From Nannocystis radixulma (GTDB taxonomy: Bacteria > Myxococcota_A > Polyangia > Nannocystales > Nannocystaceae): a stretch of DNA of 64,000 nucleotides. The notes under the pieces were generated by a model, which was given only the letters and a program-made list of their open reading frames with translations, was not told where the DNA came from and did not search any database. A program made the translations under genes and the position numbers. Below, in pieces: positions 6,686 to 58,259 of this stretch; positions within the stretch are counted from its first letter, which is position 1; each line of letters opens with the position of its first letter. The stretch covers positions 757,253-821,252 of the forward strand of contig NZ_JAQNDN010000024.1 in assembly GCF_028369095.1 (NCBI RefSeq). Reading direction: 5' to 3'.

Positions 6686-7200
6686 GCGCGCCGAACCGCG
6701 AGCGGACGATCGCGAGGCGAGCTCGAGAGCGAGACGCGCGGACGGTGTGGATGCAGAGCCGCGGAGCGGCGCGTCGCGAGGCACGGCTCTGAGACGCGGA
6801 TGGAGGCAGGCGACGGCGTCGGGGCGGTGCAGATCTGCCAGTGCGCGCGGCGTGATCCAGGTTCCCAGGTGAGCGGGTCGAATTGCGAGCGGGCGGTAGC
6901 GAGACGCGGAGCAGGCGAGGTCGCAGATCTGCTGGCAGTGAGCGCGATGGGATCGAGGCGCACAGGTGCGCGTGCCGAGATGCGAGCGGACGATAGGACG
7001 TCGTCGGGGCGGTGCAGAGCCAGGTTCCCAGGGAGTGCATCGCGACGCGGATGGAGATCTGCTGGCAGTGAGCGCGGTGTGATCGAGGTTCACAGGTGCG
7101 TGTACCGAGATGCGAGCGGACGGCAGCGGGACGCGGATGGAGATAGGTGACGTGGTCGATGGGGTGCAGATCTGCCAGTGAGCGCGGAGTCATCCAGGTC
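6665..7200. repeat. Degenerate ~100-130-bp tandem repeats, about four copies, seeded from the 3' end of glycine-rich gene 1
   Basis: The gene ends gtgatcagctggtgagcgcg. Copies of gcagatctgc(tgg)cagtg(a/c)gcgcgg…gatccaggt.cacaggtg.g occur at ~6829, 6923, 7052 and 7166. gagacgcggatggag recurs at 6791, 7044 and 7128. Confidence 0.65.
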
Positions 7201-7513
7201 CACAGGTGAGTGTGTCGTGGCCGGGCGGACGGCGGCGAGGTGCGAGGCGAAGGTCGGACTCGAGGTCGGTGCCGTGGACCGGCGAGGTGCAGCTTCGTGG
7301 TGGACCGCGACGACGTGCGGCCCCGTGGCGGCGGGGCCAAAAGCGGTGGCGAACGTCGTGCGGCGGCGAGTGGTGCCGTCTTGCGAGGATGTCTTTCGGA
7401 CATGTGCGAAGGGACATCCTCATGGAGAGCGGCGCGGCGCTGGTGATGCGGGACACAACGGGGTTTGCGTGCCTGCCTGCTGCGCATCATCCCTACAGGT
7501 CGCAGGGGGAACG

Positions 7514-8569
7514 ATGCCGATGGGACGCGAGGGCCGGTGGTGCACGTTGTCGGTGGTGTTGATGATCACCGCCGGCGGCTGCGACGAGGTCTCGGACACG
7601 TATCCCCCGCGGCCGGTGCCGGGCGCGCTCGCGGTCGCCGAGACGGGCGACGACGCCGAGGCAGACAAGGCGTCGGTGCGCGCGTGCGAGGCGGCCGCGC
7701 TCGACCTGTGCGGTTTGGAATGCGTCGACATCACGCTCGACGCGCGCCACTGCGGCGGCTGCGGCCGCGTCTGCGCCGGCACGTGCGCGGCGGGCTACTG
7801 CGAGGCGCCGTGCGAGCGCGGCCAGATCCGCTGCGACGGTCAATGTGTCGAGCGCACGCGCGTGACGCCCAGCGGCCGCGCCCGCGAGTTCGCGTTCACC
7901 GGCGCGCCGCAGACGTTCGTGGTGCCCGACTGCGTGTCGCGGATCACCATCGAGGCGTGGGGCGCCCAGGGCGGCGGCTCGCGCTGCTGCGACGGACCGG
8001 ATCAGGACGACGGCGGCCGCGGTGCTTACGTGCGCACCGAGCTCGAGGTCGAGCCGGGTGAGGCGCTTCAGATCGTGGTCGGCGGCCGCGGCGGGCTCGA
8101 GGGCGCGGCTGGTTCCAACGGCGGCGGCGTCGGAGGCGAGTTCGCGGGCGGCGGCGGCGGAGCCAGCGACGTGCGCCGCGGCGGGACGGAGCTCGACGAT
8201 CGGATCGTGGTCGCGGCGGGTGGCGGCGGCGGACAGTGCGGCTGCCCCGATCACGGCGAGGGCGGTCCGGGCGGTGTGTTCATCGGCGGCGCCGGCGTGG
8301 CGCTGTTGCCCGAGTGGCAGGCGGCGGGCGGCGGCACGCAGAGCGACGGCGGAACCGTGGGCTCCGAGCCGGGCGAGCCGGGCCTGTTCGGCAGCGGCGG
8401 CGGGGTCGGCCTGTACCACGTGGCAGGCGGGGGCGGCGGCTGGTTCGGCGGCGGCTCGGCCTACGCGGCAGGCGGAGGCGGCGGTTCGTCGTACCTCGGC
8501 GACGAGCCCGACAGCAGCGGGCTGCCCGGCGTGCGCGCGGGCGACGGAATGGTGACGATCCGCTGGTGA
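7514..8569 (+). CDS. Glycine-rich domain protein, paralogue of the 5837 gene, with a Cys-rich N-terminal region; lipoprotein
   Basis: Internal ATG at 7514 (MPMGREGRWCTLSVVLMITAGGCDE…). Motif FAFTGAPQTFVVPDCVSRITIEAWGAQGG followed by Gly runs, ending MVTIRW. Confidence 0.8.
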   Translation: MPMGREGRWCTLSVVLMITAGGCDEVSDTYPPRPVPGALAVAETGDDAEADKASVRACEAAALDLCGLECVDITLDARHCGGCGRVCAGTCAAGYCEAPCERGQIRCDGQCVERTRVTPSGRAREFAFTGAPQTFVVPDCVSRITIEAWGAQGGGSRCCDGPDQDDGGRGAYVRTELEVEPGEALQIVVGGRGGLEGAAGSNGGGVGGEFAGGGGGASDVRRGGTELDDRIVVAAGGGGGQCGCPDHGEGGPGGVFIGGAGVALLPEWQAAGGGTQSDGGTVGSEPGEPGLFGSGGGVGLYHVAGGGGGWFGGGSAYAAGGGGGSSYLGDEPDSSGLPGVRAGDGMVTIRW

Positions 8570-8703: not shown

Positions 8704-9585
8704 ATGCCCGCCCGCGAACGCACGATCGTCGCCGCCGACGGCACCCGCGTGTTCTACCGCCGCGAGGGCGAGGGGCCGGCGCTGCTGCTGTGCAACGGCA
8801 TCACGACGTCGCGGTTCTTCTGGACCCACCTGGCGCCGCGCTGGGCCCGGCGCTTCACGGTGATCACGTGGGACCTCAAGGGGCACGGCCGCAGCGAGCC
8901 GGCGCGCACGCGCGAGGGCGTCGAGATCCCGGCGCTGGCCGGCGACGCGCTGCAGATCCTCCACGCCGAGGGCCTGACCGACGCGGCGGTGATCGGCTTC
9001 TCGATGGGCTGCCAGGTCGCGCTCGAGGTCTATCGCGCGGCGCCGTCGCGGGTGCGCGGGCTGGTGCTGCTGCTCGGCCCCGCCGGCCGCGTGTTCGACA
9101 CGGCGCTCGGGCCGGTCGGGCCGATCCTGCACGGGCTCATCGCTCGCTTGCCGGTGTCCGGGTTCCGCCTGGCGTTCCGCGGGGCCCGCGGCGTGGTCGG
9201 GCTGCCGGGGAGTCGCCGCCTGGGACAGTTGCTGGGGCTCATCGGACCCGCGGCCACGCCGGCCGACGTGAAGCTGTACATCGAGCACTTCGTGCGCGAG
9301 CTCGATCCGGGCACGCTCGCGGCGATGGCGCTGGCGGCCCAGAGCCACGACGCCGCCGACCTGCTGCCGACGATCGCGGCGCCGACGCTGATCGTGGCCG
9401 GCGACCGCGACGTGTTCGCGCCGGCGCCCCGGGTCGGCCTGCCGCTGCACCGCGCGATCCCGGGCAGCCGCCTGCTTCGGCTGGAGGACGGGACGCACAC
9501 CAGCCTGTTCGAGCACCATGCGGCGATCGGTGCGGCGGTCGAGCGCTTCTGCGAGGGCCTCACCGCGCGCCGCGAGGTCGGGTAA
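8704..9585 (+). CDS. Alpha/beta-fold hydrolase
   Basis: Internal ATG at 8704. Translation has HGRSE, the nucleophile elbow GFSMGC and a C-terminal GDRD…H pattern. Confidence 0.8.
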   Translation: MPARERTIVAADGTRVFYRREGEGPALLLCNGITTSRFFWTHLAPRWARRFTVITWDLKGHGRSEPARTREGVEIPALAGDALQILHAEGLTDAAVIGFSMGCQVALEVYRAAPSRVRGLVLLLGPAGRVFDTALGPVGPILHGLIARLPVSGFRLAFRGARGVVGLPGSRRLGQLLGLIGPAATPADVKLYIEHFVRELDPGTLAAMALAAQSHDAADLLPTIAAPTLIVAGDRDVFAPAPRVGLPLHRAIPGSRLLRLEDGTHTSLFEHHAAIGAAVERFCEGLTARREVG

Positions 9586-9594
9586 AACGGCGGC

Positions 9595-10887
9595 ATGCGC
9601 CGCTTCGCCTCGCTTAGTCTCCTCCTCGCCGCCTGTAGTACCGCCGCCGCCGACTCCGACGCGACCTTGAGCGCCGGCCCCGGCACCGGCACGACCGAGA
9701 GCGGGACGACGACACCCCCCGACGAGCCGCCGCCCGGGACCAGCGAGGCGGCGCCGACGACCAGCGGCATCACGGGGGGCAGCACGAGTGCCGACAGCCT
9801 GGAGCCGACCGGGACGGGCACGGGCATGGGCGCGGAGCAGGACTACGACGTGCCCGGAGCGGCGCCGGTCGGCAACGCGACGTTCTCGGTGGTCGCGGGC
9901 GACCGCACGCTGCTGGTCGAGGCGTGGTACCCGGCGGACGCGTCGGCCGAGGCCGCGGCCGAGCAGGGCCACCCGATCGAGATGTTCGTGCCCGAGGGCG
10001 AACACCGCGAGGCGATGGTCGAGCTGCTGGCCAACCTGTCGGAGCAGGGCGAGGTCGGGGTGCGGCTGCAGACCCGCTCGGCGCGCGACGCCGCGTCGGC
10101 GGGCACCGGCCCGTACCCGCTGGTGATGTTCTCGCACTGCCACAACTGCGCCCGCTACTCGATGTTCACGATCGCCGAGCACCTCGCCAGCCACGGCTTC
10201 GTGGTCGTCGCGCCCGACCACGTCGGCAACACGCTGTTCGAGCCCGGCCCGGCCAACATGATCAGCGAGGACTTCCTGCAGGTCCGCGTGGCCGACCAGA
10301 TGGCGGTGCTCGACGCGGTGCTCGACGCCGGCAACTCGGCTGTCCCCGAGGCCATCCGCGGCTCGATCGACGCGACCCGCATCGGCGCGATGGGCCACAG
10401 CTTCGGCGCCGCCACGGCGGGTCGCCTGGCGCAGGAGGACGAGCGGATCCTCGCCGCCCTGCCGATCGCCGCGCCGGTCGAGAACCCGATCTTCTATGGC
10501 ACCAAGCTGGCGAACATCGTCGAGCCGCAGCTGTTCGTGCTGGCGGTCGAGGACAACAGCATCCAGAAGATCGGCAACAACCTCATCGAGTCGAACTTCA
10601 AGGCCGCGGCGACGCCGGCCTACCTGGTGCGCATGACGGACACCGGCCACTGGGGGCCGAGCGACATCTGCGGCCTGCGCGAGGAGTTCAACCCCGGCTG
10701 CGGGCCGGGCGTGCGCCAGTCCGACGGCAGCGAGTTCGTCTACCTCGAGCCGGTGCAGGCGCGGGCGATCGTGGCGGCCTACGCGGTCGCGTTCTTCGAC
10801 CACCACCTGCGCGGCAACGCCTCGGCGCTCGAGTTCCTGCAGACGGCGACGCCGCCCGAGGTGGTCGAGGTCGAGTCGCGGCTGTGA
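9595..10887 (+). CDS. Lipoprotein serine hydrolase of the platelet-activating-factor acetylhydrolase / lipase type
   Basis: Lipobox LLAACST, a Thr/Pro-rich linker, and the GHSFG nucleophile motif. Confidence 0.75.
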   Translation: MRRFASLSLLLAACSTAAADSDATLSAGPGTGTTESGTTTPPDEPPPGTSEAAPTTSGITGGSTSADSLEPTGTGTGMGAEQDYDVPGAAPVGNATFSVVAGDRTLLVEAWYPADASAEAAAEQGHPIEMFVPEGEHREAMVELLANLSEQGEVGVRLQTRSARDAASAGTGPYPLVMFSHCHNCARYSMFTIAEHLASHGFVVVAPDHVGNTLFEPGPANMISEDFLQVRVADQMAVLDAVLDAGNSAVPEAIRGSIDATRIGAMGHSFGAATAGRLAQEDERILAALPIAAPVENPIFYGTKLANIVEPQLFVLAVEDNSIQKIGNNLIESNFKAAATPAYLVRMTDTGHWGPSDICGLREEFNPGCGPGVRQSDGSEFVYLEPVQARAIVAAYAVAFFDHHLRGNASALEFLQTATPPEVVEVESRL

Positions 10888-12131: not shown

Positions 12132-13478
12132 TCACGCGGTTTCTTGCGCAGGCTCTTGGCCGGCTTCGCCGTCGATCGGCCGGCCCGGGCCGAACGGTTC
12201 GACGGCTCGCGAGACTCGCGGCTCGTCGACGTGGACCGGGCCGTGCACGCGGCGCAGCTCGGGGTCGATGTGCTCGCGCACGACGCGGAACAGCCCGTTG
12301 TCGAACGACTTGCCGCTGGCCGGCGCGACGTGCTCGATGCGCTCGCGCAGACCTCGAGCCTGCATGACCTCGGCGCGGTGGGCACAGAACGGGTTGTTGC
12401 CGGGGCGCCCGAGCAGCGGCTCGCTGGCGGCGGTGCAGCCGGCCATGCAGGTCTCGGCGTAGTAGCACTCGCGACAGTAGCCCCACAGATCGTCGAGGGT
12501 GCGCCGGCGGATGTAGCCGAGCTGGTAGCTGTCGTCCCAGATCTCGCGGATCGATCGCTCGCGCCAGTTACCGCCGACGTTGAGCGGGCCGCCGAGGCTG
12601 GGGCAGTTCTTGATCCCGCCGTCGCTGTCGATGCCGAGGGTGTTGACGCCCGCGCCGCAGCCGCGCCAGTGCGTGCGCAGGGCGGCGCGCAGGCGGGTCT
12701 CGAGCGGGCCGAAGTAGCCGAGGCTGTTGGCCGGCCAGAAGCGGATGCCGAGCGCGTTGCAGCGGTCGATCACCCGCTCGAGCGTGACGAACAGCTCGGG
12801 CACCATGTACGGCTGCAGGATGAGCTCGGGGTGATCGGCGGCGTTGCCGTGGGCGACGGTGAGCTGCAATTGCCAGGCGCGGATGCCCTCGGCGGCCAGC
12901 AGCTCGAGCAGGTCGAGGAGCTCGTGGCGGGTGCGCTGGTTGATCTGACAGTTGCTGGCGATCGGCAGGCCGGCTGCGCGGGCCCGCCGGAGGGTCGAGA
13001 AGGCGGCGCGCCAGCTGCCGGGGACGCCGCGCAGGCCGTCGTGGGTGGCCTCGAGGCCGTCGATCGAGACGGCGAGGCTGGACATGCCGGCGTCGATCAT
13101 CGCCGCGAGTCGATCGTCGTCGAGGTTGAGGCCGCCGGTGGTGATCATGCACTTCATGCCGGCCTCGCGGATGGCCCGCACGACGAGGATGAAGTCGTTG
13201 CGCAGGTAGGCCTCGCCGCCGATCAGCACGACCTCGCCGCAGCCGAGGTCCTTGAGCTCGGCGACGACGCGCAGGCACTCGTCGGTGTCGAGCTCGTGCG
13301 GCCGGCGCTGGCCGGCTCGCGGCCCGCAGTGGACGCACTTCTGATCGCAGGCGAGGGTGAGCTCCCAGATCGCCCAGGTGGGGTTGCCCCGCGGGGCGCC
13401 GGGGCGGCCGTAGCGGTCGGCGGCCTGCGGCAATCCGGCGACGACGGGCAGGCGACGGCGGGCGTCGGCGAGCTTCAT
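12132..13478 (-). CDS. Radical SAM / SPASM-domain peptide-modifying enzyme, paralogue 1
   Basis: CDQKCVHCG is a CxxxCxxC cluster. The C-terminal Cys-rich SPASM region reads GYCRECYYAETCMAGC…NPFC. It is about 70% identical to the 33450..34769 protein. Confidence 0.9.
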   Translation of the reverse strand: MKLADARRRLPVVAGLPQAADRYGRPGAPRGNPTWAIWELTLACDQKCVHCGPRAGQRRPHELDTDECLRVVAELKDLGCGEVVLIGGEAYLRNDFILVVRAIREAGMKCMITTGGLNLDDDRLAAMIDAGMSSLAVSIDGLEATHDGLRGVPGSWRAAFSTLRRARAAGLPIASNCQINQRTRHELLDLLELLAAEGIRAWQLQLTVAHGNAADHPELILQPYMVPELFVTLERVIDRCNALGIRFWPANSLGYFGPLETRLRAALRTHWRGCGAGVNTLGIDSDGGIKNCPSLGGPLNVGGNWRERSIREIWDDSYQLGYIRRRTLDDLWGYCRECYYAETCMAGCTAASEPLLGRPGNNPFCAHRAEVMQARGLRERIEHVAPASGKSFDNGLFRVVREHIDPELRRVHGPVHVDEPRVSRAVEPFGPGRPIDGEAGQEPAQETA

Positions 13479-13484
13479 GCGCGG

Positions 13485-13952
13485 TTACAGGGTCTCGCCG
13501 GTGGTGGTGGCCTCGGTGTCGCCCTCGGTCGCGGCCGGTGGCGCGCCGGCGGACTCGGTCTCGAGCGCGGCGGCGTAGGCGGTGGTGACGTTGAACGAGT
13601 CCATCGAGTCGCTGGCGGAGGCGCTGCCGTCGGTGGTGCTCGAGGACGTGGTGGTCGAGGTCGTGCTGGTCGTCGTCGACGTCGTGGTCGAGGTCGGCTG
13701 GTCGGTGACGGCGGTGGTGTTCTGCGTCGTCTGCCCGTCGGTGGTCTGCGCGGTCGAGGTCGGGACGGTGGTCGACTCGGTGTCGTCCGGCTTCTCGCTG
13801 CAGCTCGCGCTCATCAGGCCGAGCACCACGCCGAGGAAACGCAGGCTGCCGGGACCCTCGACGCGCCGCTGCTCGGCGCCGCAGAACGGACAGGCGGACT
13901 CGTCGCGCCGGATGGCGCGGGCACACGCGGGACAGTCGATGAGGAGCGGCAT
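13485..13952 (-). CDS. Small protein with an N-terminal CxxC-X15-CxxC module (zinc-ribbon-like), one transmembrane / lipobox helix and a Thr/Ser-rich low-complexity tail; partner of rSAM 1
   Basis: Internal ATG at 13950-13952 (MPLLIDCPACARAIRRDESACPFCGA…FLGVVLGLMSASCSEK… then TSTTTSTTTS…). It ends 7 bp before the rSAM start on the same strand. Confidence 0.7.
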   Translation of the reverse strand: MPLLIDCPACARAIRRDESACPFCGAEQRRVEGPGSLRFLGVVLGLMSASCSEKPDDTESTTVPTSTAQTTDGQTTQNTTAVTDQPTSTTTSTTTSTTSTTTSSSTTDGSASASDSMDSFNVTTAYAAALETESAGAPPAATEGDTEATTTGETL

Positions 13953-14044
13953 GCCAGAGCACCGTATCAGAACTCGCCGGCGCCGGCGCCGGGCAGATCC
14001 GCACCCGGCCCGGCGGTCGGGGCGAGGTGGGGTCGGCGAGCCGC

Positions 14045-14112
14045 GCGGGTGCGCCAAGGGACATGTCGAATCAGGCATGTCGTGAAAGACATGCTGGCGA
14101 GGGCATGTCTGT
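14045..14112. repeat. Array of 14-bp-phased CATGTC repeats upstream of the peptide-rSAM operon
   Basis: gggacatgtcgaatca ggcatgtcgtgaaa gacatgctggcgag ggcatgtctgttc gaccatgtcagcg. The region is AT-richer than its surroundings. Confidence 0.6.
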
Positions 14113-14121
14113 TCGACCATG

Positions 14122-15459
14122 TCAGCGCGAGCCCAGCAGGGCGCGGCGCAGCACGCTGGGGTGGAACAGGGCGCTGCTCGGGCGCAGCAGGTGCAGCACC
14201 TCCATCATGCGCAGCTGGACGTCGGGCGAGCGGGTGGCGGCGCTGAAGATCCGGTCGACCAGGCGGTGCATGACCTTGAGGCCAGGTGACGGTTTGCCGG
14301 TGGTCCCGGGCCAGCGCAGATCGTCGCCGACGGCGGTCATGAAGGCGGCCTGGTTGCCGGCGGCGAGGCGCTTCTGAAAGCGCAGGCCGGGCGGCTGGCC
14401 GGGGCGGGCGCGCAGCTCGGCGTCGAGGTGGGTCGAGGCGACGGCGGCGACGCTCATGCCCTGGCCGTAGACGGGGTTGAGGGCGCAGGCGGCGTCGCCG
14501 AGCACGACGAAGCCGTGCGGCCAGCGGCGCAGGCGCTCGTAGTGGCGCAGGCGGTTCTCGGTCCGGCGATAGCCGTGGATGCTGCTGCACGGGGTGGCGC
14601 CGGCCAGCGCGTCGCGCAGCGCCGGGGTCCGCAGGCCGCCCGCGAATTCGAGGAAGCCGGCCTCGTCGGTCGGCGGGAAGGCGCCGCCGTAGCCGACCAG
14701 CGTGACGATGTGACGCCCGCCCTCGACCGCGTACACGACCCCGCCGCGCGGGTTCTGGCCCGGCTTGCCCATGATGTAGAGGACCTTCCAGTCGGGCCGC
14801 GCGCGCAGCTCGTAGAGGCGGGTGACGTAGCCGAGCTGGGCGTCGATGACGGTCTCGGCGGGCTCGGGGTAGCCGAGCGCGGCCAACCAGGTCGGGGCCT
14901 TCGAGGCGCGGCCGCTGGCGTCGACGACCAGGTCGGCGCGCAGGTCGTCGGCCGCGAGCTCGGGCGCGCCGGCGCGGCGGTGGACCTGCACGCCGACGAT
15001 CCGGTCGCCCGTGGCCTGCAGACCGGTAACCTCGTAACCGGCGTGGATGCGCACGCGATCGTCGGCGACGAGGCGCGCGCGCACGTTCCACTCGAGCAAG
15101 CCACGGGTGCAGGCGCGCGAGCGCAACGGCGAGGGCCCGCGCGGCATGAGGCCGAACGGGGTGTGCCACTCGACGTCGGCCAGCCAGTCGTACTCGTGCG
15201 CCCCCGCGGCCGCGAGCGCGTCGCCGAGGCCGGGGAACTGCTCGCTCAGGATCTGCCAGCCGCGCGTCAGCAGGACGTGGACGTGGTGGCTCTGCGGGGC
15301 ACCGGCGCGCGGCTCCGGTCCGCCCGGCAAGAGGTCGCGGTCGAGGACGGTGACGCGCTCGTAGTGACGCGTGAGCACGCGAGCGGCGAGGAGGCCGGCG
15401 ATCCCGCCGCCGATCACGAGCGCGCGCCGATTCGCCGGCGCGGAGCCTGATGTGGGCAT
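14122..15459 (-). CDS. FAD-dependent monooxygenase / oxidoreductase
   Basis: Internal ATG at 15457-15459. VIGGGIAGLLAARVL is a GxGxxG dinucleotide-binding fold, and the family-typical GDAAH-like motif LGDAACALNPVYGQG is present. Confidence 0.8.
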   Translation of the reverse strand: MPTSGSAPANRRALVIGGGIAGLLAARVLTRHYERVTVLDRDLLPGGPEPRAGAPQSHHVHVLLTRGWQILSEQFPGLGDALAAAGAHEYDWLADVEWHTPFGLMPRGPSPLRSRACTRGLLEWNVRARLVADDRVRIHAGYEVTGLQATGDRIVGVQVHRRAGAPELAADDLRADLVVDASGRASKAPTWLAALGYPEPAETVIDAQLGYVTRLYELRARPDWKVLYIMGKPGQNPRGGVVYAVEGGRHIVTLVGYGGAFPPTDEAGFLEFAGGLRTPALRDALAGATPCSSIHGYRRTENRLRHYERLRRWPHGFVVLGDAACALNPVYGQGMSVAAVASTHLDAELRARPGQPPGLRFQKRLAAGNQAAFMTAVGDDLRWPGTTGKPSPGLKVMHRLVDRIFSAATRSPDVQLRMMEVLHLLRPSSALFHPSVLRRALLGSR

Positions 15460-15928
15460 GGCGCAGTGATACGACAGCGCGGCCACGGCCGGAAGCGGGC
15501 GTCCCCGAGTACGGGCGCGCGATCGCCCGCGCGGGCGGTGAAGGCTCCGTCTGTCTGAAGAGACAGGTGTGTGGTTCGCCGCCGGCGGCCGCGGCGGAGC
15601 GAGCGGCCGACGTCACAATCACGGCAGGCCCCGCCTGAGCGGGGTGACAGGATTGGCGATCGGGAAATGCCCACACCGGCGTATACGAGCTTCCGCACGG
15701 GCATTCGCCTTGACCGATCGAAGGGTGGCGTGTATCCCCGAATTCGATGCTCCGGCGCGCCACCACCGCGACCACCACTACCACCCATCCGGGTGGGGTC
15801 GGTCGCGTGCGCGTGCGCTGAGAGAGTCGTCCACGCCCTGCGAAACCCCGCCCGAGCCGGCGGAGTTTCGCGCGTCTCGGTGGCGTCGCTCCGTCCGGTC
15901 GGCCCTTTGCCCCCAGGAGTCCGCCGCC

Positions 15929-17149
15929 ATGAGTCACGACATCAGCCCCCATTCCGTCCTCGACGCCCACGACCACCGCGCCCTCGGGCCGCGCCTCGGC
16001 CTGTTCCACCTGCAGGAAGAGGCCCCGGCGATGGTGTTCTGGCACCCGAAAGGCCTGGTCCTCGTCCGCGCGCTCGAGGACGCGGCCCGCCGCCGCGCCG
16101 TCGCCGACGGCTACCACGAGGTGCGCACGCCGCAATTGTTGAGACAGCCGATCTGGGAGAAGAGCGGCCACTGGGAGCACTTCCGCCACGGAATGTTCGC
16201 ACTCGCCGACGAGGGCTGCGGCGCGGCGCTGAAGCCGGTCTCGTGCCCCGGCCACATCCAGATCGCCCAGCGCAGCGCGCTGTCGTACCGCGACCTGCCG
16301 CTGCGCGTGTGCGAGTTCGGCCTGTGCCACCGCGACGAGCCGAGCGGGACGCTGCACGGGCTGTTCCGCCTGCGACAGTTCACGCAGGACGACGGCCACG
16401 TGTTCTGCGCCGAGGACCAGATCGGGCCCGAGATCGTGCGATTTTGCCGCGGCGCCCGCCAGTTCTACGCGGCGTTCGGCTTCGCCGAGTTCGCGGTGGG
16501 CCTGTCGACGCGCCCGCCCGAGCGGGTCGGCGACGACGCGACGTGGGACCGCGCCGAGGCGCTGCTCGCCGCGGCGGCCCGCGACGCCGGCCTCGATTGC
16601 GCGGTGCAGCCGGGCGAGGGCGCGTTCTACGGGCCCAAGCTCGAGTTCTCGCTGCGCGACCGCCTCGGCCGCTCGTGGCAATGCGGGACGATCCAACTCG
16701 ACTTCAACCTGCCTTCGCGGTTCGACCTGCATTACATCGACGAGGCCGGCCAGCGCCGGCGCCCGGCGATGCTGCACCGCGCGATCTACGGCAGCGTCGA
16801 GCGCTTCCTGGCGATCGTGCTCGAGCACCACGCAGGGGCGCTGCCGGCCTGGCTGGCTCCGGTGCAGGTGGTGGTGGCGCCGGTGGCCCCGGCGCAGAAC
16901 GAGGCGGCGGCGGCGGCGGTCGCCGAATTGCGGGCGGCCGGGGTGCGCGTCGAGCTCGACGACCGCCGCGAGACGCTGGCCCGCCGGGTCGCCGAGGCCC
17001 ACGCGAACGGGGTGCCGATGTTCGCGGTGATCGGCGCCCGCGAGGCCGCCGGCGAGGCGCTGGCGCTGCGGATCCGCGAACAGCAGCAGGTGCTGCCGCG
17101 GGCCGAGGCGGTGGCGCAGATCGCCCGCGACTGCGCGCCGCCGGTGTGA
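15929..17149 (+). CDS. Threonyl-tRNA-synthetase-like protein with only the class II catalytic and anticodon-binding domains; it lacks the N-terminal TGS/editing domains
   Basis: Internal ATG at 15929 preceded by caggagt. Long collinear similarity to the ThrRS catalytic core: HRALGPRLGLFHLQEEAPAMVFWHPKG…KPVSCPGHIQIAQ…FTQDDGHVFC…LGEGAFYGPKLEF…WQCGTIQLDFNLP. Confidence 0.8.
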   Translation: MSHDISPHSVLDAHDHRALGPRLGLFHLQEEAPAMVFWHPKGLVLVRALEDAARRRAVADGYHEVRTPQLLRQPIWEKSGHWEHFRHGMFALADEGCGAALKPVSCPGHIQIAQRSALSYRDLPLRVCEFGLCHRDEPSGTLHGLFRLRQFTQDDGHVFCAEDQIGPEIVRFCRGARQFYAAFGFAEFAVGLSTRPPERVGDDATWDRAEALLAAAARDAGLDCAVQPGEGAFYGPKLEFSLRDRLGRSWQCGTIQLDFNLPSRFDLHYIDEAGQRRRPAMLHRAIYGSVERFLAIVLEHHAGALPAWLAPVQVVVAPVAPAQNEAAAAAVAELRAAGVRVELDDRRETLARRVAEAHANGVPMFAVIGAREAAGEALALRIREQQQVLPRAEAVAQIARDCAPPV

Positions 17150-17554
17150 CGAATGGCCGGCGGCTCGCGCGTGCGAGCCGCCGGCGATAATGCCACGAGA
17201 GTCCATGAGGACATGGCGATATCGACATGTTCTCATGGACATATTGAGCAATGCTCGCGCCGCGAGCATGGCTGCGTCGATGGAGAATGTCGCGAGCACG
17301 CAAGATCGTGCGCGGCGGCCCGCGGACACAGGAACTTCGCGACCGTGGTCGTTGCGAGGGAGATCGCCCGCCTTCTGCAAGCCGAGGCGGGGCGGCCGGC
17401 CCGCCCGCGGTCGACCGGGACGGGCGCGCGGGCGCCTGCTGGGGGGCCGTAGCCGCGGCAGTGGCTCCCGGCGATGCGCGAAAACGCTCTCTGCCGAGTA
17501 GGGGCTGTGCCACTCGTCGGCGGGACCACGGTGAGCGAAAGTCGGGCCTCCGGC

Positions 17555-18625
17555 ATGACCGCTCAAGCCCCCAAGCCCATCAGCGCGCTCGAAGCGCTGG
17601 AGCGCGCGCAGTGGATCGCGTTCGCTCCGTTCGTGTTCCAGGCGGCCCGCGTGCTGCGCGACCGCGGGATCCTCCTCGCCATCGAGCAGAGCAAGGACGG
17701 GCTGACGCTCGAGGAGGTGGCGGCCACGGCCGGGCTGCCGATCTACGGCACGCGGGTGGTGCTCGAGGCGGGGCTCGGGATCGGGCTGGTCGCCGAGGTC
17801 GAGGGCCGCTATCGCATCACCAAGACCGGCGTGTACGTGCAACACGACGCGATGACGCGCGCCAACTTCGACTTCACGCGCGACGTGAACTACCACGGGA
17901 TCGCGGCGCTCGACGCGGCGGTGGCCTCGGGCAAGCCCGAGGGGCTCAAGGTGTTCGGCGAGTGGGCCACGGTGTACGAGGGGCTCGCGCAATTGCCGGA
18001 GTCGGTGCGAAAGTCGTGGTTCGGCTTCGACCACTATTATTCGGACGGCGCATTCGGGGCCGCGCTGCCGCTGGTGTTCGCCGGCAAGCCGCGGCGCCTG
18101 CTCGACATCGGCGGCAACACCGGCAAGTGGGCGATCGCCTGCATGAAGCACGACCCGGACGTCGAGGTGACGCTGATGGACCTGCCGGGCCAGCTGCGCA
18201 ACGCGGAGCAGAACCTGCGCGAGGCGGGGCTGCTGGCGCGGGCCCGCTTCCTCGAGGCCGATCTGCTCGACGAGCGCACGGTGATCCCGGCCGAATTCGA
18301 CGCGATCTGGATGAGCCAGTTCCTCGACTGCTTCTCCGAGGCGGAGATCGTATCGATCCTGCGCCGCTGCGTGGCGGCCACCGGGCCCAATTGCAGGATC
18401 TACATCCTCGAGGCGTTCTGGGACCGCCAGCGCTTCGCGGCCGCCAGCTTCTGCCTGCAGATGACGTCGCTCTACTTCACGGCGGTCGCCAACGGCACCA
18501 GCCAGATGTACCGCTCGACGACGTTCCTCGCGTGCCTGCACGCGGCCGGTCTCGAGGTCGAGCGCGAGTACGACGACCTCGGGGTCAGCCACACGCTGCT
18601 GGTCTGCCGCCCGCGGCCGATGTGA
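17555..18625 (+). CDS. Class I SAM-dependent O-methyltransferase with an N-terminal dimerisation domain
   Basis: Internal ATG at 17555. LLDIGGNTGKW is methyltransferase motif I, within an overall plant/bacterial OMT-like architecture. Confidence 0.8.
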   Translation: MTAQAPKPISALEALERAQWIAFAPFVFQAARVLRDRGILLAIEQSKDGLTLEEVAATAGLPIYGTRVVLEAGLGIGLVAEVEGRYRITKTGVYVQHDAMTRANFDFTRDVNYHGIAALDAAVASGKPEGLKVFGEWATVYEGLAQLPESVRKSWFGFDHYYSDGAFGAALPLVFAGKPRRLLDIGGNTGKWAIACMKHDPDVEVTLMDLPGQLRNAEQNLREAGLLARARFLEADLLDERTVIPAEFDAIWMSQFLDCFSEAEIVSILRRCVAATGPNCRIYILEAFWDRQRFAAASFCLQMTSLYFTAVANGTSQMYRSTTFLACLHAAGLEVEREYDDLGVSHTLLVCRPRPM

Positions 18626-30644: not shown

Positions 30645-30746
30645 GCGCGCCTGCGCGATAGCGACGCGCGGCCCCGGGGCTGCCTTCGCGGCGCGTCGGC
30701 TCGTATGCTCGGGGCCCGCGACGTCAGCCGTCGCGACAGGAGCCCC

Positions 30747-33254
30747 ATGAACGACCGAGGCCGTGAACGAGACCTTGTCCTCGCACCGAACGAGTTCGCC
30801 TTCATCCTGGACGAGACGAAGGGCAACATCAACGTCTACGTCGGGCCGCACAAGACGAGCCTCGCCAACACCGACGCGCCGGTGGTGTTCGACGCCGGCA
30901 GCAAGCGGTTCGAACGGCGCCAGCTCGACGGCGCGATCCAGGCGCTGTCGATCGCGCCCGAGGGCTGGTACCTGGTGCTGAAGAACCCGGCGACCGACAA
31001 GAGCCACCCGCGGACCGGCGCGCTCAACAACTTGCCGTCGCTCGACACCGGCCGCAAGGTCAACATCCCCGGGCCGGCCTCGTTCGCGCTGTGGCCCGGC
31101 CAGATGGTCAGGGTCATCCAGGGCCACCACCTGCGCTCCAATCAATACCTGCTGGTCCGCGTCTACGACGAGGAGGGCGCCAAGGCCAACTGGAAGAACG
31201 CGGTGCTGCGCATGCGGCCCGAGGCGGCGCCCGACGAGGCCGAGGCCGCGGCCAGGGTGGTGCGGCCGCCCGATCTGACGATGGGCACGCTGCTGATCAC
31301 CCGCGGCACCGAGGTCGCGTTCTACATCCCGCCGACGGGCGTCGAGGTGGTGCCCGACGTCGACGGCAACTACGTGCGCGAGGCGATCACGCTCGAGCGA
31401 CTCGAGTACTGCATCCTGCTCGACGAGAACGGCAACAAGCGCTACATCCAGGGCCCCGACGTGGTGTTTCCGCAGCCGACGGAGACCTTCGTGGCGATCC
31501 GCGGCGCCCGCAAGTTCCGCGCGCTCGAGCTCAACGAGAACACCGGCCTCTACATCAAGGTCATCGCGCCGTACGAGGAGAACGGGGTCCGCTACAAGGT
31601 CGGCGACGAGCTGTTCATCACCGGCAAGGACACGATGATCTACCTGCCGCGGCCGGAGCACGCGATCATCAAGTACGGCGATCAGGAGCGTCACTACGCG
31701 GTGGCGATCCCGGCCGGCGAGGCGCGCTACGTGCTCGACCGCAACAAGGGCACGATCACGCTCAAGCGCGGGCCGGCGATCTATCTCCCCGATCCGCGCA
31801 CGGAGCTGATCATCCGCCGCGTCCTCGATCCGAAGACCGTGTCGCTGTGGTTCCCCGGCAACCGCGAGGCGTACGACTACAACCGCCGCATGGCCCAGCA
31901 GAACGCGCCGCAGATCGCGGCGGAGTTCGCGGCGGTGGCGTCGGTGCCGGTGCAGTCGGCCCGGGCCTCGGCGGCGCCCAAGGCGGCCCCCGCGGCGGCT
32001 CCCGGCGGTCCGCCGCCGCCTCCGCCGCCGCCGCCGTCGGAGTTCGCCGGCGACGACTTCACGCGCAGCCAGACCTTCACTGGCCCGCGCACGATCGTGC
32101 TCGACACCCGCTACGAGGGCGCGGTCGCCATCGACGTGTGGACCGGCTACGCGGTGCTGGTGGTGTCGAAGACCGGCGAGCGCAAGGTCGTCGCCGGGCC
32201 GCACACGCACCTGCTCGAGTACGACGAGACGTTGCAGGTGCTCGAGCTGTCGACCGGCACGCCGAAGAGCGAGCAGAACCTGTACAAGACGGTGTACCTG
32301 CGGGTGCTCAACAACAAGGTGTCCGACCAGGTCGAGGTCGAGACCCGCGACCTGGTGCGCGTGCAGCTGCAGCTCAGCTACCGCGTCAACTTCGAGGGCG
32401 ACCCGAACAAGTGGTTCGAGGTCGAGAATTACGTCAAGTTCCTGACCGACCACCTGCGCTCGCTGATCCGCGCGGCGGTCAAGCGCCACGGCATCGAGCA
32501 GTTCTACGCCGACTCGGTGGCGATCCTGCGCGACGTGATCCTCGGGACGACGGGCGAGGACGGCAAGCGCCCCGGTCGTCGCTTCGAGGAGAACGGCATG
32601 CGCGTGTACGACGTCGAGGTCCTCGAGGTCACGATCGGCGACGAGGCGATCGCCGAGCTGCTGGTCCAGGCGCAGCACGCCGCGGTCCAGCAGACGCTGT
32701 CGCTGGCGGCCGAGCAGCGCCGGCTCGAGATGGTGCGCCAGACCGAGGGCGTGACGCAGCAGGTCGCCGAGGCCAAGTCGGCGACGCTGCAGCAGGCGAT
32801 CGCGCTGCGTACCCGCGAGGGCGAGCAGCAGCAGCGCTATCAGCTGGCCGAGCTGGCGGCCAAGCTCGACCTGCACGAGCGGCAACAGCAGGCGCTGCTG
32901 GCCGAGCAGGAGCGGGTGGGGGCGATCCACGGGGCCGACCTCGGCCGCCGTCAGGCCACGGCCCAGCTCGATCTGTCGATCCAGCAGCAGCAGCTCGACC
33001 AGCGCCTGCGCGAGCTGCAGGCCGAGGTCATGGCGGTGGTCGAGAAGGCGCGGGCGGTCTCGCCCGACCTCATCGCCGCGCTGCAGGCGTTCGGCGACCG
33101 GGCCCTGGCCGAGAAGATGGCGGAGTCGATGGCGCCGCTGGCGATCCTCGGCGGAGAGAGCGTGGCCGAGGTGCTCGGCCGCCTGCTCCGCGGCTCTCCG
33201 CTGGCGCGCCTGCTGCCGGCCGGCGAGGCGAAGACCGAGACACCGAAGTCGTGA
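30747..33254 (+). CDS. Major vault protein (MVP) homologue
   Basis: Internal ATG at 30747 preceded by gacaggagcc. The N-terminal MVP repeat units resemble FAFILDETKGNINVYVGPHKT, YLVLKN…, YIKVIAPYEENGVRYKVGDELFI and so on. These are followed by a shoulder-like region and a long coiled-coil-like tail (QQQLDQRLRELQAEV…). Confidence 0.8.
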   Translation: MNDRGRERDLVLAPNEFAFILDETKGNINVYVGPHKTSLANTDAPVVFDAGSKRFERRQLDGAIQALSIAPEGWYLVLKNPATDKSHPRTGALNNLPSLDTGRKVNIPGPASFALWPGQMVRVIQGHHLRSNQYLLVRVYDEEGAKANWKNAVLRMRPEAAPDEAEAAARVVRPPDLTMGTLLITRGTEVAFYIPPTGVEVVPDVDGNYVREAITLERLEYCILLDENGNKRYIQGPDVVFPQPTETFVAIRGARKFRALELNENTGLYIKVIAPYEENGVRYKVGDELFITGKDTMIYLPRPEHAIIKYGDQERHYAVAIPAGEARYVLDRNKGTITLKRGPAIYLPDPRTELIIRRVLDPKTVSLWFPGNREAYDYNRRMAQQNAPQIAAEFAAVASVPVQSARASAAPKAAPAAAPGGPPPPPPPPPSEFAGDDFTRSQTFTGPRTIVLDTRYEGAVAIDVWTGYAVLVVSKTGERKVVAGPHTHLLEYDETLQVLELSTGTPKSEQNLYKTVYLRVLNNKVSDQVEVETRDLVRVQLQLSYRVNFEGDPNKWFEVENYVKFLTDHLRSLIRAAVKRHGIEQFYADSVAILRDVILGTTGEDGKRPGRRFEENGMRVYDVEVLEVTIGDEAIAELLVQAQHAAVQQTLSLAAEQRRLEMVRQTEGVTQQVAEAKSATLQQAIALRTREGEQQQRYQLAELAAKLDLHERQQQALLAEQERVGAIHGADLGRRQATAQLDLSIQQQQLDQRLRELQAEVMAVVEKARAVSPDLIAALQAFGDRALAEKMAESMAPLAILGGESVAEVLGRLLRGSPLARLLPAGEAKTETPKS

Positions 33255-41300: not shown

Positions 41301-42719
41301 TCAGGCCAGGAGCTCGGCGTACTCGCCCGGCTCGAGTCCAGCCCGCCCGAACTGCGTGATCGGCCCGCCGTTGTCGGTGCAGCCGACCGCGTTGAGCAGC
41401 GTGATGAGCAGCCGATTGTGCGGGTGCGACTGGACCCAGGGGTCCTGCCCGTTGATGAGGTCGATGTAGTGCCCCTGCTTGAGGTACCCGCCCGCGCCGC
41501 CGGCGATGATGATCGGAAGATCGAGGTACGAGTGGGCCTTGCCGTCGGACAGCTCGTTGAACCACACCACCGCCGAGTTATCGAGCACCGTCCCGTCGCC
41601 CTCGCTGTAGCCCGAGAGGCGGTCGAGCAGGTGCTTGAACTGCTCCGCGTGCCAGCGATCGATCTGGGCGATCATGTCGAGGTATCCGGCCACCTCCTCG
41701 CCCGAGTCGTCGTCCTTGGTGTTGCCGTGCGACAGCTTGTGGTGGTTGAACTCGTGGTTCATCCCGTCCCACTTGTAGATCGGTCCGCCCGAGCCGGAGG
41801 CGAACTGGATCGAGCCGGCGCTGGTGGCTCCGCAGGCGATCGCCATGGCGAGGATGTCGAGCTGCATCTGGCCGATCGTCTTGAACTGCCAGTCCTCGAG
41901 CACGCTGTTGGGGTCGATGGCCTCGATCTCGCCCGCCCGCGCGGGGTCGAGGGCGCACTCGATGAGGCCGTTGCCGATCATGTCGACCTCGAGGTCGCGG
42001 ATCGAGTCGGCGTGCATCTCGAGCTTGGTGAGGTCGGCCTGGCTGAGGTTCTTGGCCTTGAGCGCCTTGAACTCCTCCTCGACGAGGTCGAGCACGCTCT
42101 GGCGGCGCGCGGCGATCTGCATCTTCACGGCCTCGTCGAGGCCGCCCAGGCCCATGAGGTCCTGGTAGGTCAGCCACGGGTTGCCCTCGGGCGTGACCGG
42201 CGTGTTGGCGCCGGCGTACGAGATGTGGCCGAGCCAGTTGGTGTGACGCCAGCCGACCGAGAGGGTCATCGCCGGGGCGCCGTCCTTGTTGAGCTGGCCG
42301 GCGGCGAATTGGTCGATCGAGATCCCGCGCGAATAGAGCGTGTCGGGGTGCAGCGCCTCGGCGGTGAGCTTGTGGCCCATGCCCTTGGCGTGGTCGTCAC
42401 CCGGGGTATCGGCGTCCTGGCCCCAGCCCTTGGGCACCATGTGCATGCCGCGAGGGATCAGCAGCTTGCCGGCGTAGTCGGCCACCGGCTCGAGACCGGT
42501 GCCCATCAGCGAGGCCGCCGACAGCGGGCCGGGCGCGGCCGGGAAGAAGGTCTCCATGTTGACGCCGTTGCACATGAAGAACACGACGAGCCGCTTGCCG
42601 CCCGGCTCGGCGGCGCGGGCCGTCTTGATGAAGCGGCGCCAGTTCAGCGACTCGAGGAAGGGCAGCGCGACCGCGACTCCGCACGCGCCTCGCAGGAAGT
42701 TCCGCCGTCTCATGGTCAT
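41301..42719 (-). CDS. DUF1552 family protein with a twin-arginine signal
   Basis: Internal ATG at 42717-42719 (MTMRRRNFLRGACGVAVALP…). The stop/start overlaps the upstream DUF1592 gene as ATGA. Confidence 0.8.
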   Translation of the reverse strand: MTMRRRNFLRGACGVAVALPFLESLNWRRFIKTARAAEPGGKRLVVFFMCNGVNMETFFPAAPGPLSAASLMGTGLEPVADYAGKLLIPRGMHMVPKGWGQDADTPGDDHAKGMGHKLTAEALHPDTLYSRGISIDQFAAGQLNKDGAPAMTLSVGWRHTNWLGHISYAGANTPVTPEGNPWLTYQDLMGLGGLDEAVKMQIAARRQSVLDLVEEEFKALKAKNLSQADLTKLEMHADSIRDLEVDMIGNGLIECALDPARAGEIEAIDPNSVLEDWQFKTIGQMQLDILAMAIACGATSAGSIQFASGSGGPIYKWDGMNHEFNHHKLSHGNTKDDDSGEEVAGYLDMIAQIDRWHAEQFKHLLDRLSGYSEGDGTVLDNSAVVWFNELSDGKAHSYLDLPIIIAGGAGGYLKQGHYIDLINGQDPWVQSHPHNRLLITLLNAVGCTDNGGPITQFGRAGLEPGEYAELLA

Positions 42720-44488: not shown

Positions 44489-44618
44489 GTCGCCTCCTCG
44501 GAAGCCACGGTAGAGGCCGGCCCGAGGGCCTGCAACGCGGAATCGGCGGGGGCGAGGAACCCCGCGTGGGCGAGCGCCCGAGAGCGGCTCGCGGCTCCGA
44601 ACGCGCTATGGTGCGCGC

Positions 44619-57169: not shown

Positions 57170-58168
57170 ATGTCGACAGTACGATCGCAGGGGCGCCGTT
57201 CGCTCCTGGTGGTGGGGATCGCATTGTCCCTGGCTGTTCCGGCCCCCGCATGGGCCGCGCAGCCAGGGGAGTCCACGACTGAATGGAAGACCGATTCGGC
57301 CAAGCCGGCCGCCGACGACGACATCGTCCTCGACGACTCGCCCGAGCCGAGCAACAACAACAAGAAGAAGAGCGGCAAGAAGAAGGCCGCTCCCAAGCCG
57401 CAGCCGCGCGAGGCCGTGATCAGCGCCCAGGTCGAGAAGGCCGAGGCCGAGCGCGCGCCGCTGCAGGACCAGGCGCAGAAGCTGTCCGACGCCGGTAACC
57501 TCGAGGGTGCCGTCGGCCTGCTCGCCGGTGGGGCCGAGGCCCTGCGCGACCCGGTGCTGCACCTCGCGGCCGCCGACGCGCGGCAGAAGCTCGCGCGCAA
57601 GCGCAGCGCCGACCAGGCCAAGGCCGAGTGGGAGGCCAGCCTGCGCCACATCGACCGCGCCGACGCCCTGCTGGCGGCCAGCAGCGGCGGCGCCCTCGAC
57701 GGCATCCGCGTCAGCCCCGACGACGTCGAGACGATGCACGCCTGGAGCACCGAGCTGCGCGCCGCGGCCGACGGGGCCTTGCCCGACCTCGTGCGCCGCA
57801 CCAATCCGGTGCGCCGCAACGCCCGCGGCGAGCTGATCGCCGGCTCGATCTTCCTCGCTGGCGGCCTCGCGGGCCTCGGCGTCATGGCCGGCGGCATCTA
57901 TCTCAGCCGCTCCGCCGACCGCGAGCTGCCCAAGGCGGGCGACAACCCCATGTACCTCGAGCCGCTCGAGGCGCAGAAGAAGAAGGGCGACACCATGACC
58001 GCCGCCGGCGCGGTCGCGGGTGTCCTCGGCGTCGCGCTCGGCGTCACCCTGGTCGCTCTCGGCGCGACCGACTTCAAGAAGGCGAAAATGGAGCAGCTGT
58101 CGCGCGTCTCCGTCGCCCCGACCTTCGCCCCGACGTACGGGGGCCTGTCCCTGTCTGCACGCTTCTGA
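57170..58168 (+). CDS. Hypothetical secreted / membrane-anchored protein
   Basis: Internal ATG at 57170 after aaggagag. Signal peptide RRSLLVVGIALSLAVPAPAWA and a C-terminal hydrophobic segment. Confidence 0.6.
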   Translation: MSTVRSQGRRSLLVVGIALSLAVPAPAWAAQPGESTTEWKTDSAKPAADDDIVLDDSPEPSNNNKKKSGKKKAAPKPQPREAVISAQVEKAEAERAPLQDQAQKLSDAGNLEGAVGLLAGGAEALRDPVLHLAAADARQKLARKRSADQAKAEWEASLRHIDRADALLAASSGGALDGIRVSPDDVETMHAWSTELRAAADGALPDLVRRTNPVRRNARGELIAGSIFLAGGLAGLGVMAGGIYLSRSADRELPKAGDNPMYLEPLEAQKKKGDTMTAAGAVAGVLGVALGVTLVALGATDFKKAKMEQLSRVSVAPTFAPTYGGLSLSARF

Positions 58169-58259
58169 CCTGGCCCGAGGGCCGCGATCGTCGCCCCGGC
58201 CCGGGCCCCGCGATCCCCACCTGTCCTACGGGCCATCTCTTCCAGGAGCACCTTCGACC

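Follow-up and report, generated by a model that had tools for sequence, protein, structure and literature searches.

A threonyl-tRNA synthetase gene without TGS and editing domains and its predicted threonine-codon attenuator in Nannocystis radixulma

We analysed a stretch of 64,000 nucleotides from Nannocystis radixulma (NCBI RefSeq assembly GCF_028369095.1, contig NZ_JAQNDN010000024.1, positions 757,253 to 821,252; hereafter the window, whose own coordinates are used throughout). It encodes a short threonyl-tRNA synthetase (ThrRS) gene, thrS, which is preceded by a leader region containing a small open reading frame (ORF) with a run of threonine codons. The gene and the elements of its leader, up to the hairpin predicted to cover the Shine-Dalgarno (SD) site of thrS, are as follows.

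15710-15738 (+): promoter-like site, with a -35 hexamer TTGACC (15710-15715), a 17-nt spacer and a -10 hexamer TATCCC (15733-15738)
15747-15821 (+): predicted leader peptide ORF of 24 codons plus stop, MLRRATTATTTTTHPGGVGRVRVR, identified by its threonine-codon run and its conservation
15766-15878 (+): predicted attenuator core, matched by covariance model R1 (described below) with 87.9 bits
15780-15786 (+): ACCACCC, the end of region 1 (the threonine run); region 1 pairs with region 2
15791-15807 (+): region 2, GGGTGGGGTCGGTCGCG, G-rich and encoding a conserved Gly-Gly
15845-15853 (+): region 3, ACCCCGCCC; pairs with region 2 or region 4
15859-15871 (+): region 4, GGCGGAG then TTTCGC; pairs with region 3
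15879-15928 (+): predicted SD-sequestering hairpin, with 5' arm GGTGGCG, anti-SD GCTCCGTCC (15888-15896), SD AGGAG (15915-15919) and 3' arm CGCCGCC (15922-15928)
15929-17149 (+): truncated thrS, encoding a 406-aa ThrRS with class II motifs, zinc site and anticodon-binding domain; ATG at 15929, stop at 17147-17149

A ThrRS without TGS and editing domains

The thrS ORF is intact over its 406 codons and has the SD sequence AGGAG 9 nt upstream of its ATG. The only Pfam domains in the encoded protein are tRNA-synt_2b (PF00587, E = 7.6e-45) and HGTP_anticodon (PF03129, E = 7.6e-15), and the NCBIfam thrS equivalog model TIGR00418 matches it with 450 bits against a cut-off of 383.65, covering profile positions 170-560 of 565. 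Its alignment to residues 242-613 of Escherichia coli ThrRS (PDB 1qf6) contains no gaps, and it also aligns with the engineered delta-N E. coli constructs of 401-411 aa in the PDB. Its N-terminus lies 14 residues ahead of the DHR motif (D242-H243-R244 of E. coli). Residue numbers given here are those of E. coli and were checked against 1qf6, with which our reference sequence is identical over 642 of 642 residues. The canonical bacterial architecture, in which N-terminal TGS (N1) and editing (N2, tRNA_SAD) domains precede the catalytic core, is not that of the 406-aa protein.

Searches with tblastn using 14 ThrRS N-terminal regions detected neither TGS nor editing domains in the 64 kb of the window or up to 10 kb away from 11 related loci, and no free-standing ThrRS editing-domain gene was found in the same sequences. 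A candidate hidden TGS domain at 7754-8041 (tblastn E = 0.08) was rejected, as it falls in an ALK/LTK glycine-rich-domain protein. This protein is encoded by an ORF at 7178-8569 (+) (PF12810, E = 5e-23, with a weak STIG1-like match) that was missed by a gene filter based on G+C content at third codon positions (GC3). Upstream of thrS, the in-frame open stretch extends for 120 codons only (there is a stop before 15569), lacks a coding signature (GC3 of 0.75 and second-position G+C, GC2, of 0.69, compared with 0.95 and 0.49 in thrS itself) and carries a 4-nt indel relative to Nannocystis exedens. An earlier note on this DNA, made from the sequence alone, had described the gene as a stand-alone ThrRS core that starts at the equivalent of residue ~240, with no N1 or N2 domain in frame upstream, and the domain models, the alignment to 1qf6 and the upstream frame all bear this out. 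The same note dismissed the upstream sequence as R/G-rich junk, and here it was mistaken: what precedes thrS is a conserved, predicted regulatory leader with a threonine-codon ORF and alternative hairpins. We conclude with very high confidence that the gene encodes a natural ThrRS core plus anticodon-binding domain that lacks the TGS and editing domains.

The active site is intact. The window protein has the catalytic and zinc-binding residues C334, H385, H511, R363, E365, Q381, D383, Y462, K465, T482, Q484 and R520, which are invariant or almost invariant among 117 family members.

The truncated protein matches at least 600 genome stretches, of which the best 80 by similarity were taken as genome loci. 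Among the best 120 protein clusters, almost all members are 369-426 aa long (outliers of 300 and 473 aa), and none has a Pfam domain other than PF00587 and PF03129. Those with a name belong to Sorangium, Stigmatella, Pyxidicoccus, Melittangium, Archangium, Corallococcus and Myxococcaceae, and NCBI labels the family proteins threonine--tRNA ligase. The closest of the 80 genome loci is that of N. exedens DSM 71 (90% protein identity). Loci from Byssovorax, Citreicoccus, Sorangium, Myxococcus, Polyangiaceae and Kofleriaceae follow at 59-65% identity, with upstream frames too short to hold the 240 residues. A metagenome-assembled genome (MAG) binned as Steroidobacteraceae and the alphaproteobacterial isolate Desertibaculum encode members of the same family, likewise behind short upstream open frames. 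The next-best loci, at 46-55% identity, are full-length ThrRS genes of alpha-, beta- and gammaproteobacteria. Family proteins begin 5-6 residues ahead of the DHR motif, the Nannocystis N-terminus being slightly longer.

The phylogenetic placement that the earlier note had suggested was carried out as a neighbour-joining tree of 83 sequences, in which the window copy falls within a clade of truncated, myxobacterial-type ThrRS (395-406 aa) with 99% bootstrap support. This clade is a deep branch outside the proteobacterial ThrRS. Other ThrRS representatives of ~400 aa either group weakly with the clade or are scattered among full-length enzymes, and those high-GC full-length representatives that carry a name are from Acidobacteriota, Planctomycetota or archaea. 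The truncated ThrRS is an old monophyletic family, present across Myxococcota and in a few other lineages, and no isolated truncation. One protein of 815 aa (P0191) has an N-terminal ThrRS core of the truncated type, starting from the DHR motif, fused to a C-terminal extension of ~400 residues.

We inspected the residues that determine sensitivity to ThrRS inhibitors, as the earlier note had proposed. Borrelidin sensitivity is determined by H309 and L489, and substitutions are reported for the S. parvulus enzyme at the equivalents of N312, F461, S488 and L489; Y462 is the residue modified by obafluorin. These positions are mostly in the sensitive state: the window protein keeps H309, F461, L489 and Y462 and has no S. 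parvulus-type substitution at F461 or L489. Two residues ahead of the zinc ligand C334, position 332 is valine in 117 of 117 family members and methionine in all other sequences examined (M332V). Compared with proteobacterial ThrRS, the clade also shows M374F, V376L and L493F. The anticodon-binding motif (residues 575-589) is remodelled (K577T/S, Y580R, R583A, H585A, S586H, K589G), and the anticodon-binding domain compares with the full-length set as follows.

K577: K in 100% of the full-length comparison set; T or S in the truncated family
Y580: Y in 82% and F in 14% of the full-length set; R in the truncated family
R583: R in 100% of the full-length set; A, V or L in the truncated family
S586: S in 79% and T in 17% of the full-length set; H in the truncated family
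K589: K in 78% and R in 18% of the full-length set; G or A in the truncated family
E600 and R609: conserved in the full-length set and in the truncated family

L493F, H585A and M374F were rejected as a family signature, since they are present in full-length ThrRS of Acidobacteriota and Planctomycetota. By sequence comparison, M332V and the rebuilt anticodon-binding motif, including positions 577 and 583, remain distinctive for the clade.

The leader upstream of thrS

The ~190 nt upstream of the thrS ATG are far more conserved between the window and N. exedens than the remainder of the intergenic region. The leader peptides of the two species are identical. The predicted regulatory run at 15762-15785 reads ACC ACC GCG ACC ACC ACT ACC ACC (seven threonine codons in eight), and in N. 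exedens it differs by ACC/ACT swaps only, which are synonymous in the leader frame and non-synonymous in the thrS frame. The possibility that this ACC-rich stretch encodes a histidine-rich peptide in the thrS frame was rejected, as the substitutions are synonymous solely in the threonine frame. A TTGAC(A/C/G) hexamer occurs ~31-38 nt upstream of the leader start codon in most of 19 loci. Because the -10 region ends only 7-12 nt before this codon across loci (8 nt before the leader ATG in the window), the leader ORF is probably leaderless or nearly leaderless. A consensus promoter scan at stricter settings did not call the promoter-like site at 15710-15738.

Among truncated-thrS loci with sufficient upstream sequence, all 12 genome loci and all 10 metagenome loci have an equivalent ORF. 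These ORFs are 21-28 codons long, have a threonine run of 5-8 (6-10 threonine codons in total) and end 85-119 nt upstream of thrS. Threonine accounts for 29% of their 460 codons, with free variation among its synonymous codons (72 ACC, 49 ACG, 12 ACT and one ACA). Upstream ORFs with a threonine run also precede three of 114 full-length thrS genes, in Vogesella (L077, MFKRTTTTRTSR then stop), Sutterella (L065, ending LRTTTTR) and a metagenome contig (L121, MTPRTTTTTFTGN then stop). These three stop 95-126 nt ahead of the start codon, do not match model R1 and may be independent threonine attenuators. On this distribution, control of thrS by a threonine leader appears to be universal in the truncated form and rare in the full-length form, and so not restricted to truncated genes. 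Two more distant truncated ThrRS genes, P0188 (L162; 48% identity, locus at 61% GC) and P0137 (L163; 47% identity, locus at 49% GC), are preceded by threonine leaders ending GAFSSTTTTTTMF and MVSDSTTTTAL, respectively, each followed by a hairpin with a U-tract. No threonine leader was found upstream of a third, P0122 (L164).

The window leader is predicted to fold with -102.3 kcal/mol (z = -3.68) into three hairpins. H1 pairs the threonine run (region 1) with the G-rich region 2, H2 pairs CCCCGCC (region 3) with GGCGG(G/A)G (region 4), and H3 pairs the anti-SD sequence CUCCGUC with the thrS SD site. All three recur in the individual minimum-energy folds of other loci. RNAalifold on a plain MAFFT alignment recovered only the 2:3 helix (GGCGGG with CCCGCC), which is the most conserved complementarity; the register of the other helices required a covariance model. 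We built this model, R1, with 114 positions from 19 leaders. It finds 22 of 22 truncated-thrS leaders, including three outside the training set (L101 with 52 bits, L118 with 46 and L093 with 35), and partially matches a 5'-truncated leader (L103). Upstream of thrS in ~135 full-length loci (1.7 Mb searched), R1 gave no match better than E = 0.005. Weak R1 matches were rejected at 12221-12330 of one locus (L002), which lies inside a coding region and has no threonine run, and at window positions 27035 and 8494, which are at chance level. Rfam gave no relevant match to the leader (15650-15960) even at E <= 10. The predicted alternative pairings recur across the leaders, with the following values.

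Terminator-state pairs: 73% paired, against 42-53% in the control with the pairs slid; covariation score reached by 1 of 500 shuffles
Antiterminator (2:3) pairs: 77.5% paired, against 42-55% when slid; CG/GC exchange at column pair 26:104
Mean duplex energy of 1:2: -24.2 kcal/mol
Mean duplex energy of 2:3: -21.5 kcal/mol, against -15.8 in the control with region 3 reversed
Mean duplex energy of 3:4: -16.6 kcal/mol
T fraction in the 9 nt after region 4: 34%, against 12% in the rest of the element
Mean probability of an unpaired SD over 19 loci: 0.17, against 0.33 in shuffles (Wilcoxon p = 1.6e-4)

The predicted order of stability, 1:2 > 2:3 > 3:4, is the one that an attenuator requires. Clear U-runs follow region 4 in several loci (L005, L018, L088 and L162).

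Neighbouring genes

The window has a G+C content of 73% and encodes myxobacterial markers, such as a GltG/AgmX-tail protein. As the earlier note had described, and as Pfam and NCBIfam assign them, the flanks of thrS are a divergent FAD-dependent oxidoreductase gene and an O-methyltransferase gene; the latter starts 325 bp downstream of thrS.

14122-15486 (-): FAD-dependent oxidoreductase, divergent from thrS
17474-18625 (+): O-methyltransferase, FlxJ-family-like (485 bits, below the cut-off of 560)
12132-13484 (-): radical-SAM/SPASM peptide maturase, closest to the GDL-motif and nif11-class maturase models and below their cut-offs
13579-14085 (+): 168-aa ORF adjoining the maturase gene, inserted relative to N. 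exedens

Synteny with N. exedens extends over the FAD oxidoreductase, thrS, the methyltransferase, M16 peptidases, OmpA and a histidine kinase. Relative to N. exedens, the window has three insertions: the radical-SAM/SPASM maturase with its small ORF, a PQQ/BamB-like protein and a GltG-like protein. The oxidoreductase and methyltransferase genes flank thrS in both Nannocystis genomes and in no other genus examined, and outside Nannocystis the genes around truncated thrS are unrelated. No core biosynthetic genes (polyketide synthase, nonribosomal peptide synthetase or other) were found by Pfam and NCBIfam scans of ~30 ORFs of the window. A biosynthetic-cluster setting was rejected, since the window contains hydrolases, M16 peptidases, a histidine kinase, OmpA, kinases and similar genes. 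The maturase, 2.4 kb from thrS, was rejected as a hint of a cluster, as it is absent from the syntenic region of N. exedens. Together with the 168-aa ORF, it may form a small strain-specific cassette for a ribosomally synthesised and post-translationally modified peptide. The window contains no tRNA genes and no Rfam families at gathering score.

N. exedens has an insertion of ~530 bp between the FAD oxidoreductase gene and the threonine leader (9060-9640 of locus L001), with at least six copies of the motif CTGKCYGAAGRGACAKGT at irregular spacings of 59-265 nt. The window has one copy of this motif, GTCTGAAGAGACAGGT, at ~15553-15572. Elsewhere in the window, an ORF at 30645-33254 (+) encodes an 869-aa protein with a Major Vault Protein shoulder, a Vault_3 repeat and a Band_7/SPFH domain, a bacterial homologue of the eukaryotic vault shell protein. 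Two further ORFs, at 42719-44605 (-) and 57999-60110 (+), carry planctomycete-type PSD/PSCyt domain sets (DUF1585/1587/1588/1592/1595, PSCyt1), which are unusual outside Planctomycetota.

Proposed regulation, alternatives and known systems

We think it fairly probable that this gene is an auxiliary ThrRS lacking cis-editing, under the control of an attenuator and inducible by scarcity of Thr-tRNAThr. Leaders with regulatory codons, such as thrL, pheM-pheST and trpL, govern genes whose products provide the cognate charged tRNA. A cognate-codon leader reports the supply of charged tRNA to ribosomes, and thrS would therefore be raised when Thr-tRNAThr falls. In the proposed mechanism, the promoter would fire just upstream of the 24-codon leader ORF. 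With plentiful Thr-tRNAThr, the ribosome would pass through the leader, 1:2 would pair, the 3:4 hairpin and the T-rich tract would form the terminator state, and the further hairpin would cover the thrS SD site. With scarce Thr-tRNAThr, the ribosome would stall on the threonine run and mask region 1, so that the 2:3 antiterminator would form and transcription would proceed into thrS. The enzyme would then boost the charging of tRNAThr in threonine-starved cells, or in cells whose main ThrRS is inhibited or does not suffice, and would do so without cis proofreading of Ser-tRNAThr. The analysis itself establishes the domain content, the intact active site, the distribution of the family, the conserved leader ORF and the alternative pairings; we infer the control of termination by stalling, the charging of tRNAThr by the enzyme and the presence of a full-length housekeeping ThrRS gene elsewhere in the genome. 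From the conserved ORF and pairings, we have high confidence that the leader is a threonine-sensing attenuator. Our confidence is moderate that its output step is transcription termination, and likewise moderate that the enzyme is auxiliary and not the sole ThrRS.

Several points weigh against this interpretation. The window has only a weak U-tract (UUUCGC), several loci have none, and a consensus terminator scan of the window was negative. In equilibrium folding, a mask representing the stalled ribosome raised the mean probability of an unpaired SD from 0.17 to 0.25 only. Purely translational attenuation, in which stalling would release the SD, was rejected, as equilibrium folding gives it no support; because masking does not reliably open the SD at equilibrium, we assign the switch to helix 3:4, that is, to termination. 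Covariation is modest, the helices being highly conserved in sequence, and an alignment fitted to the covariance model is biased towards that model. In addition, an attenuator would by analogy also suit a sole, self-balancing ThrRS, as in E. coli pheST, and the remodelled anticodon-binding motif may leave room for an altered tRNA specificity.

A doubtful extension is a widespread bacterial module in which an unproofread ThrRS with altered anticodon recognition would be switched on deliberately at low charged tRNAThr, either for regulated serine-for-threonine mistranslation under starvation or as an inducible bypass of natural ThrRS inhibitors. If the inhibitor bypass were true, this would be the first attenuator-controlled resistance synthetase.

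A related explanation, which we judge improbable, is that the gene encodes an inhibitor-resistant ThrRS that protects against ThrRS-targeting products (borrelidin-like or obafluorin-like) of the cell itself or of competing soil bacteria, with the attenuator turning the gene on when the sensitive housekeeping ThrRS is blocked. The attenuator model would hold here too, and only the reason for selection would be another. Second, divergent aminoacyl-tRNA synthetase copies are a known device (BorO, ObaO and the mupirocin-resistance IleRS), a blocked main ThrRS would cause low Thr-tRNAThr, the proposed inducing signal, and the invariant M332V lies beside the zinc ligand C334, with M374F, V376L and L493F as further differences from proteobacterial ThrRS. 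However, other phyla have L493F, H585A and M374L/F in their ordinary full-length ThrRS, the known resistance positions are mostly in the sensitive state (H309, F461, L489 and Y462 kept), there is no biosynthetic cluster around the gene, and its surroundings change from genus to genus, an argument against a link with any single product. The earlier note had offered antibiotic self-resistance or a stress-specific paralogue as explanations for such a gene. Of these, the conserved threonine-codon leader favours the stress paralogue; self-resistance finds no backing in the unrelated neighbourhoods, in the ~30 scanned ORFs of the window, none of which is a core biosynthetic gene, or in the sensitive state of H309, L489 and Y462.

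It is quite improbable, in our view, that Myxococcota have replaced the full-length enzyme and that this is their only ThrRS, with the attenuator balancing its level and fidelity maintained by an unlinked trans-editor, by pre-transfer editing or by discrimination in the active site. The wide distribution of the family and its strong conservation from one myxobacterial suborder to another (59-65% identity) are those expected of a housekeeping gene, its proteins carry the NCBI name threonine--tRNA ligase, and an editing-free ThrRS serves as the only enzyme in yeast mitochondria (3ugq). There is also no full-length myxobacterial ThrRS among the best 80 genome loci, but absence from the best 80 of at least 600 stretches says little. 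Against a sole ThrRS, the tight off-state (terminator plus SD sequestration) suits a conditionally expressed gene. Moreover, the family occurs in an alphaproteobacterial isolate and in a Steroidobacteraceae-binned MAG, and another Steroidobacteraceae MAG (L047) has the full-length gene. Curated full-length ThrRS entries presumably exist for Myxococcus, Anaeromyxobacter and Sorangium.

Finally, a non-canonical function, such as threonine activation or the charging of a particular tRNA for a tailoring pathway with the FAD oxidoreductase and the methyltransferase, or the charging of a different tRNA subset through the altered motif, is very improbable: truncated synthetase paralogues with new roles are known, the oxidoreductase, thrS and FlxJ-like methyltransferase trio is common to the window and N. 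exedens, and the whole family has other residues in place of K577 and R583, which do not vary in the full-length comparison set, but the trio is not kept outside Nannocystis, the methyltransferase begins as far as 325 bp downstream, the active site is complete with E600 and R609 kept, and the threonine-codon attenuator links the gene to the Thr-tRNAThr supply of ribosomes.

A literature search, from which subscription journals were largely absent, yielded no account of a truncated bacterial ThrRS family, of a threonine leader before thrS or of leader-peptide attenuation in myxobacteria. As far as we found, the protein family is annotated already but apparently has not been studied. What appears to be new is the combination of an editing-free ThrRS with a leader-peptide attenuator, and the leader is not listed in Rfam. 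Editing by ThrRS is regarded as necessary in bacteria, as the zinc site is unable to exclude serine, and the existence of a natural and conserved ThrRS family without editing domains in large-genome, free-living bacteria offers a direct test of this necessity. The predicted attenuator names the condition under which the enzyme is expected to be produced, low Thr-tRNAThr. The leader is a compact RNA element and a candidate addition to annotation pipelines, and it suggests that classical leader-peptide attenuation operates in Myxococcota. For genome mining, the duplicated synthetase is probably a phylum-wide regulated paralogue and no marker of a nearby antibiotic gene cluster.

Among known systems, the self-resistance enzymes BorO and ObaO are second ThrRS copies of soil bacteria, as the window gene probably is. 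Their genes sit inside the borrelidin and obafluorin clusters, whereas the window gene lies in no cluster. In ObaO, the residues with which E. coli ThrRS contacts tRNA, zinc and Thr-AMP are conserved. In its protein, the window gene is closest in design to the engineered E. coli delta-N ThrRS (residues 242-642; PDB 1evk, 1evl and further entries), with which it shares the same domains, the same N-terminal boundary, a gap-free alignment and the catalytic residues. The delta-N enzyme charges tRNAThr normally, mischarges serine and cannot clear Ser-tRNAThr. In contrast to this construct, the window protein is the product of a natural gene with its own predicted promoter and attenuator, and has M332V and the remodelled anticodon-binding motif.

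In its leader, the window gene resembles E. coli pheST (with pheM) and thrL (RF00506), where a short ORF of cognate codons is followed by alternative 1:2, 2:3 and 3:4 hairpins. pheM is a precedent for an aminoacyl-tRNA synthetase operon under leader-peptide control. The window leader differs from both in belonging to another sequence family, in its high GC content, in a U-tract that is often weak, in the additional hairpin predicted to sequester the SD and in a probably leaderless ORF. One of the closest parallels in proposed function is Bacillus subtilis thrZ, which encodes a second ThrRS, is silent until thrS is limiting, and is controlled by a T-box and induced by uncharged tRNAThr. In both cases, an extra ThrRS gene would respond to a lack of charged tRNAThr by way of a leader that attenuates transcription. 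ThrZ, however, is full length and its T-box senses uncharged tRNA, whereas the window gene is predicted to have a leader of the translated type with threonine codons; no T-box was found at the window thrS by Rfam, either at gathering score in the window or at E <= 10 in 15650-15960.

The crenarchaeal ThrRS-cat/ThrRS-ed pair and yeast mitochondrial MST1 are likewise natural ThrRS systems without a cis-editing domain (3a31 and 3ugq are weaker PDB matches of the window protein). They belong to archaeal-type and mitochondrial lineages, and ThrRS-cat has a separate editing protein. Anabaena ThrRS T2, a paralogue of zinc starvation with impaired editing, is comparable as a stress-induced duplicate ThrRS deficient in editing; in Anabaena, subunits of the other ThrRS provide editing in trans (Rubio et al. 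2015, PMC4787780). T2 still has its N-terminal domains, N2 carrying an insertion, and responds to zinc status, whereas the window enzyme lacks those domains and its proposed signal is Thr-tRNAThr.

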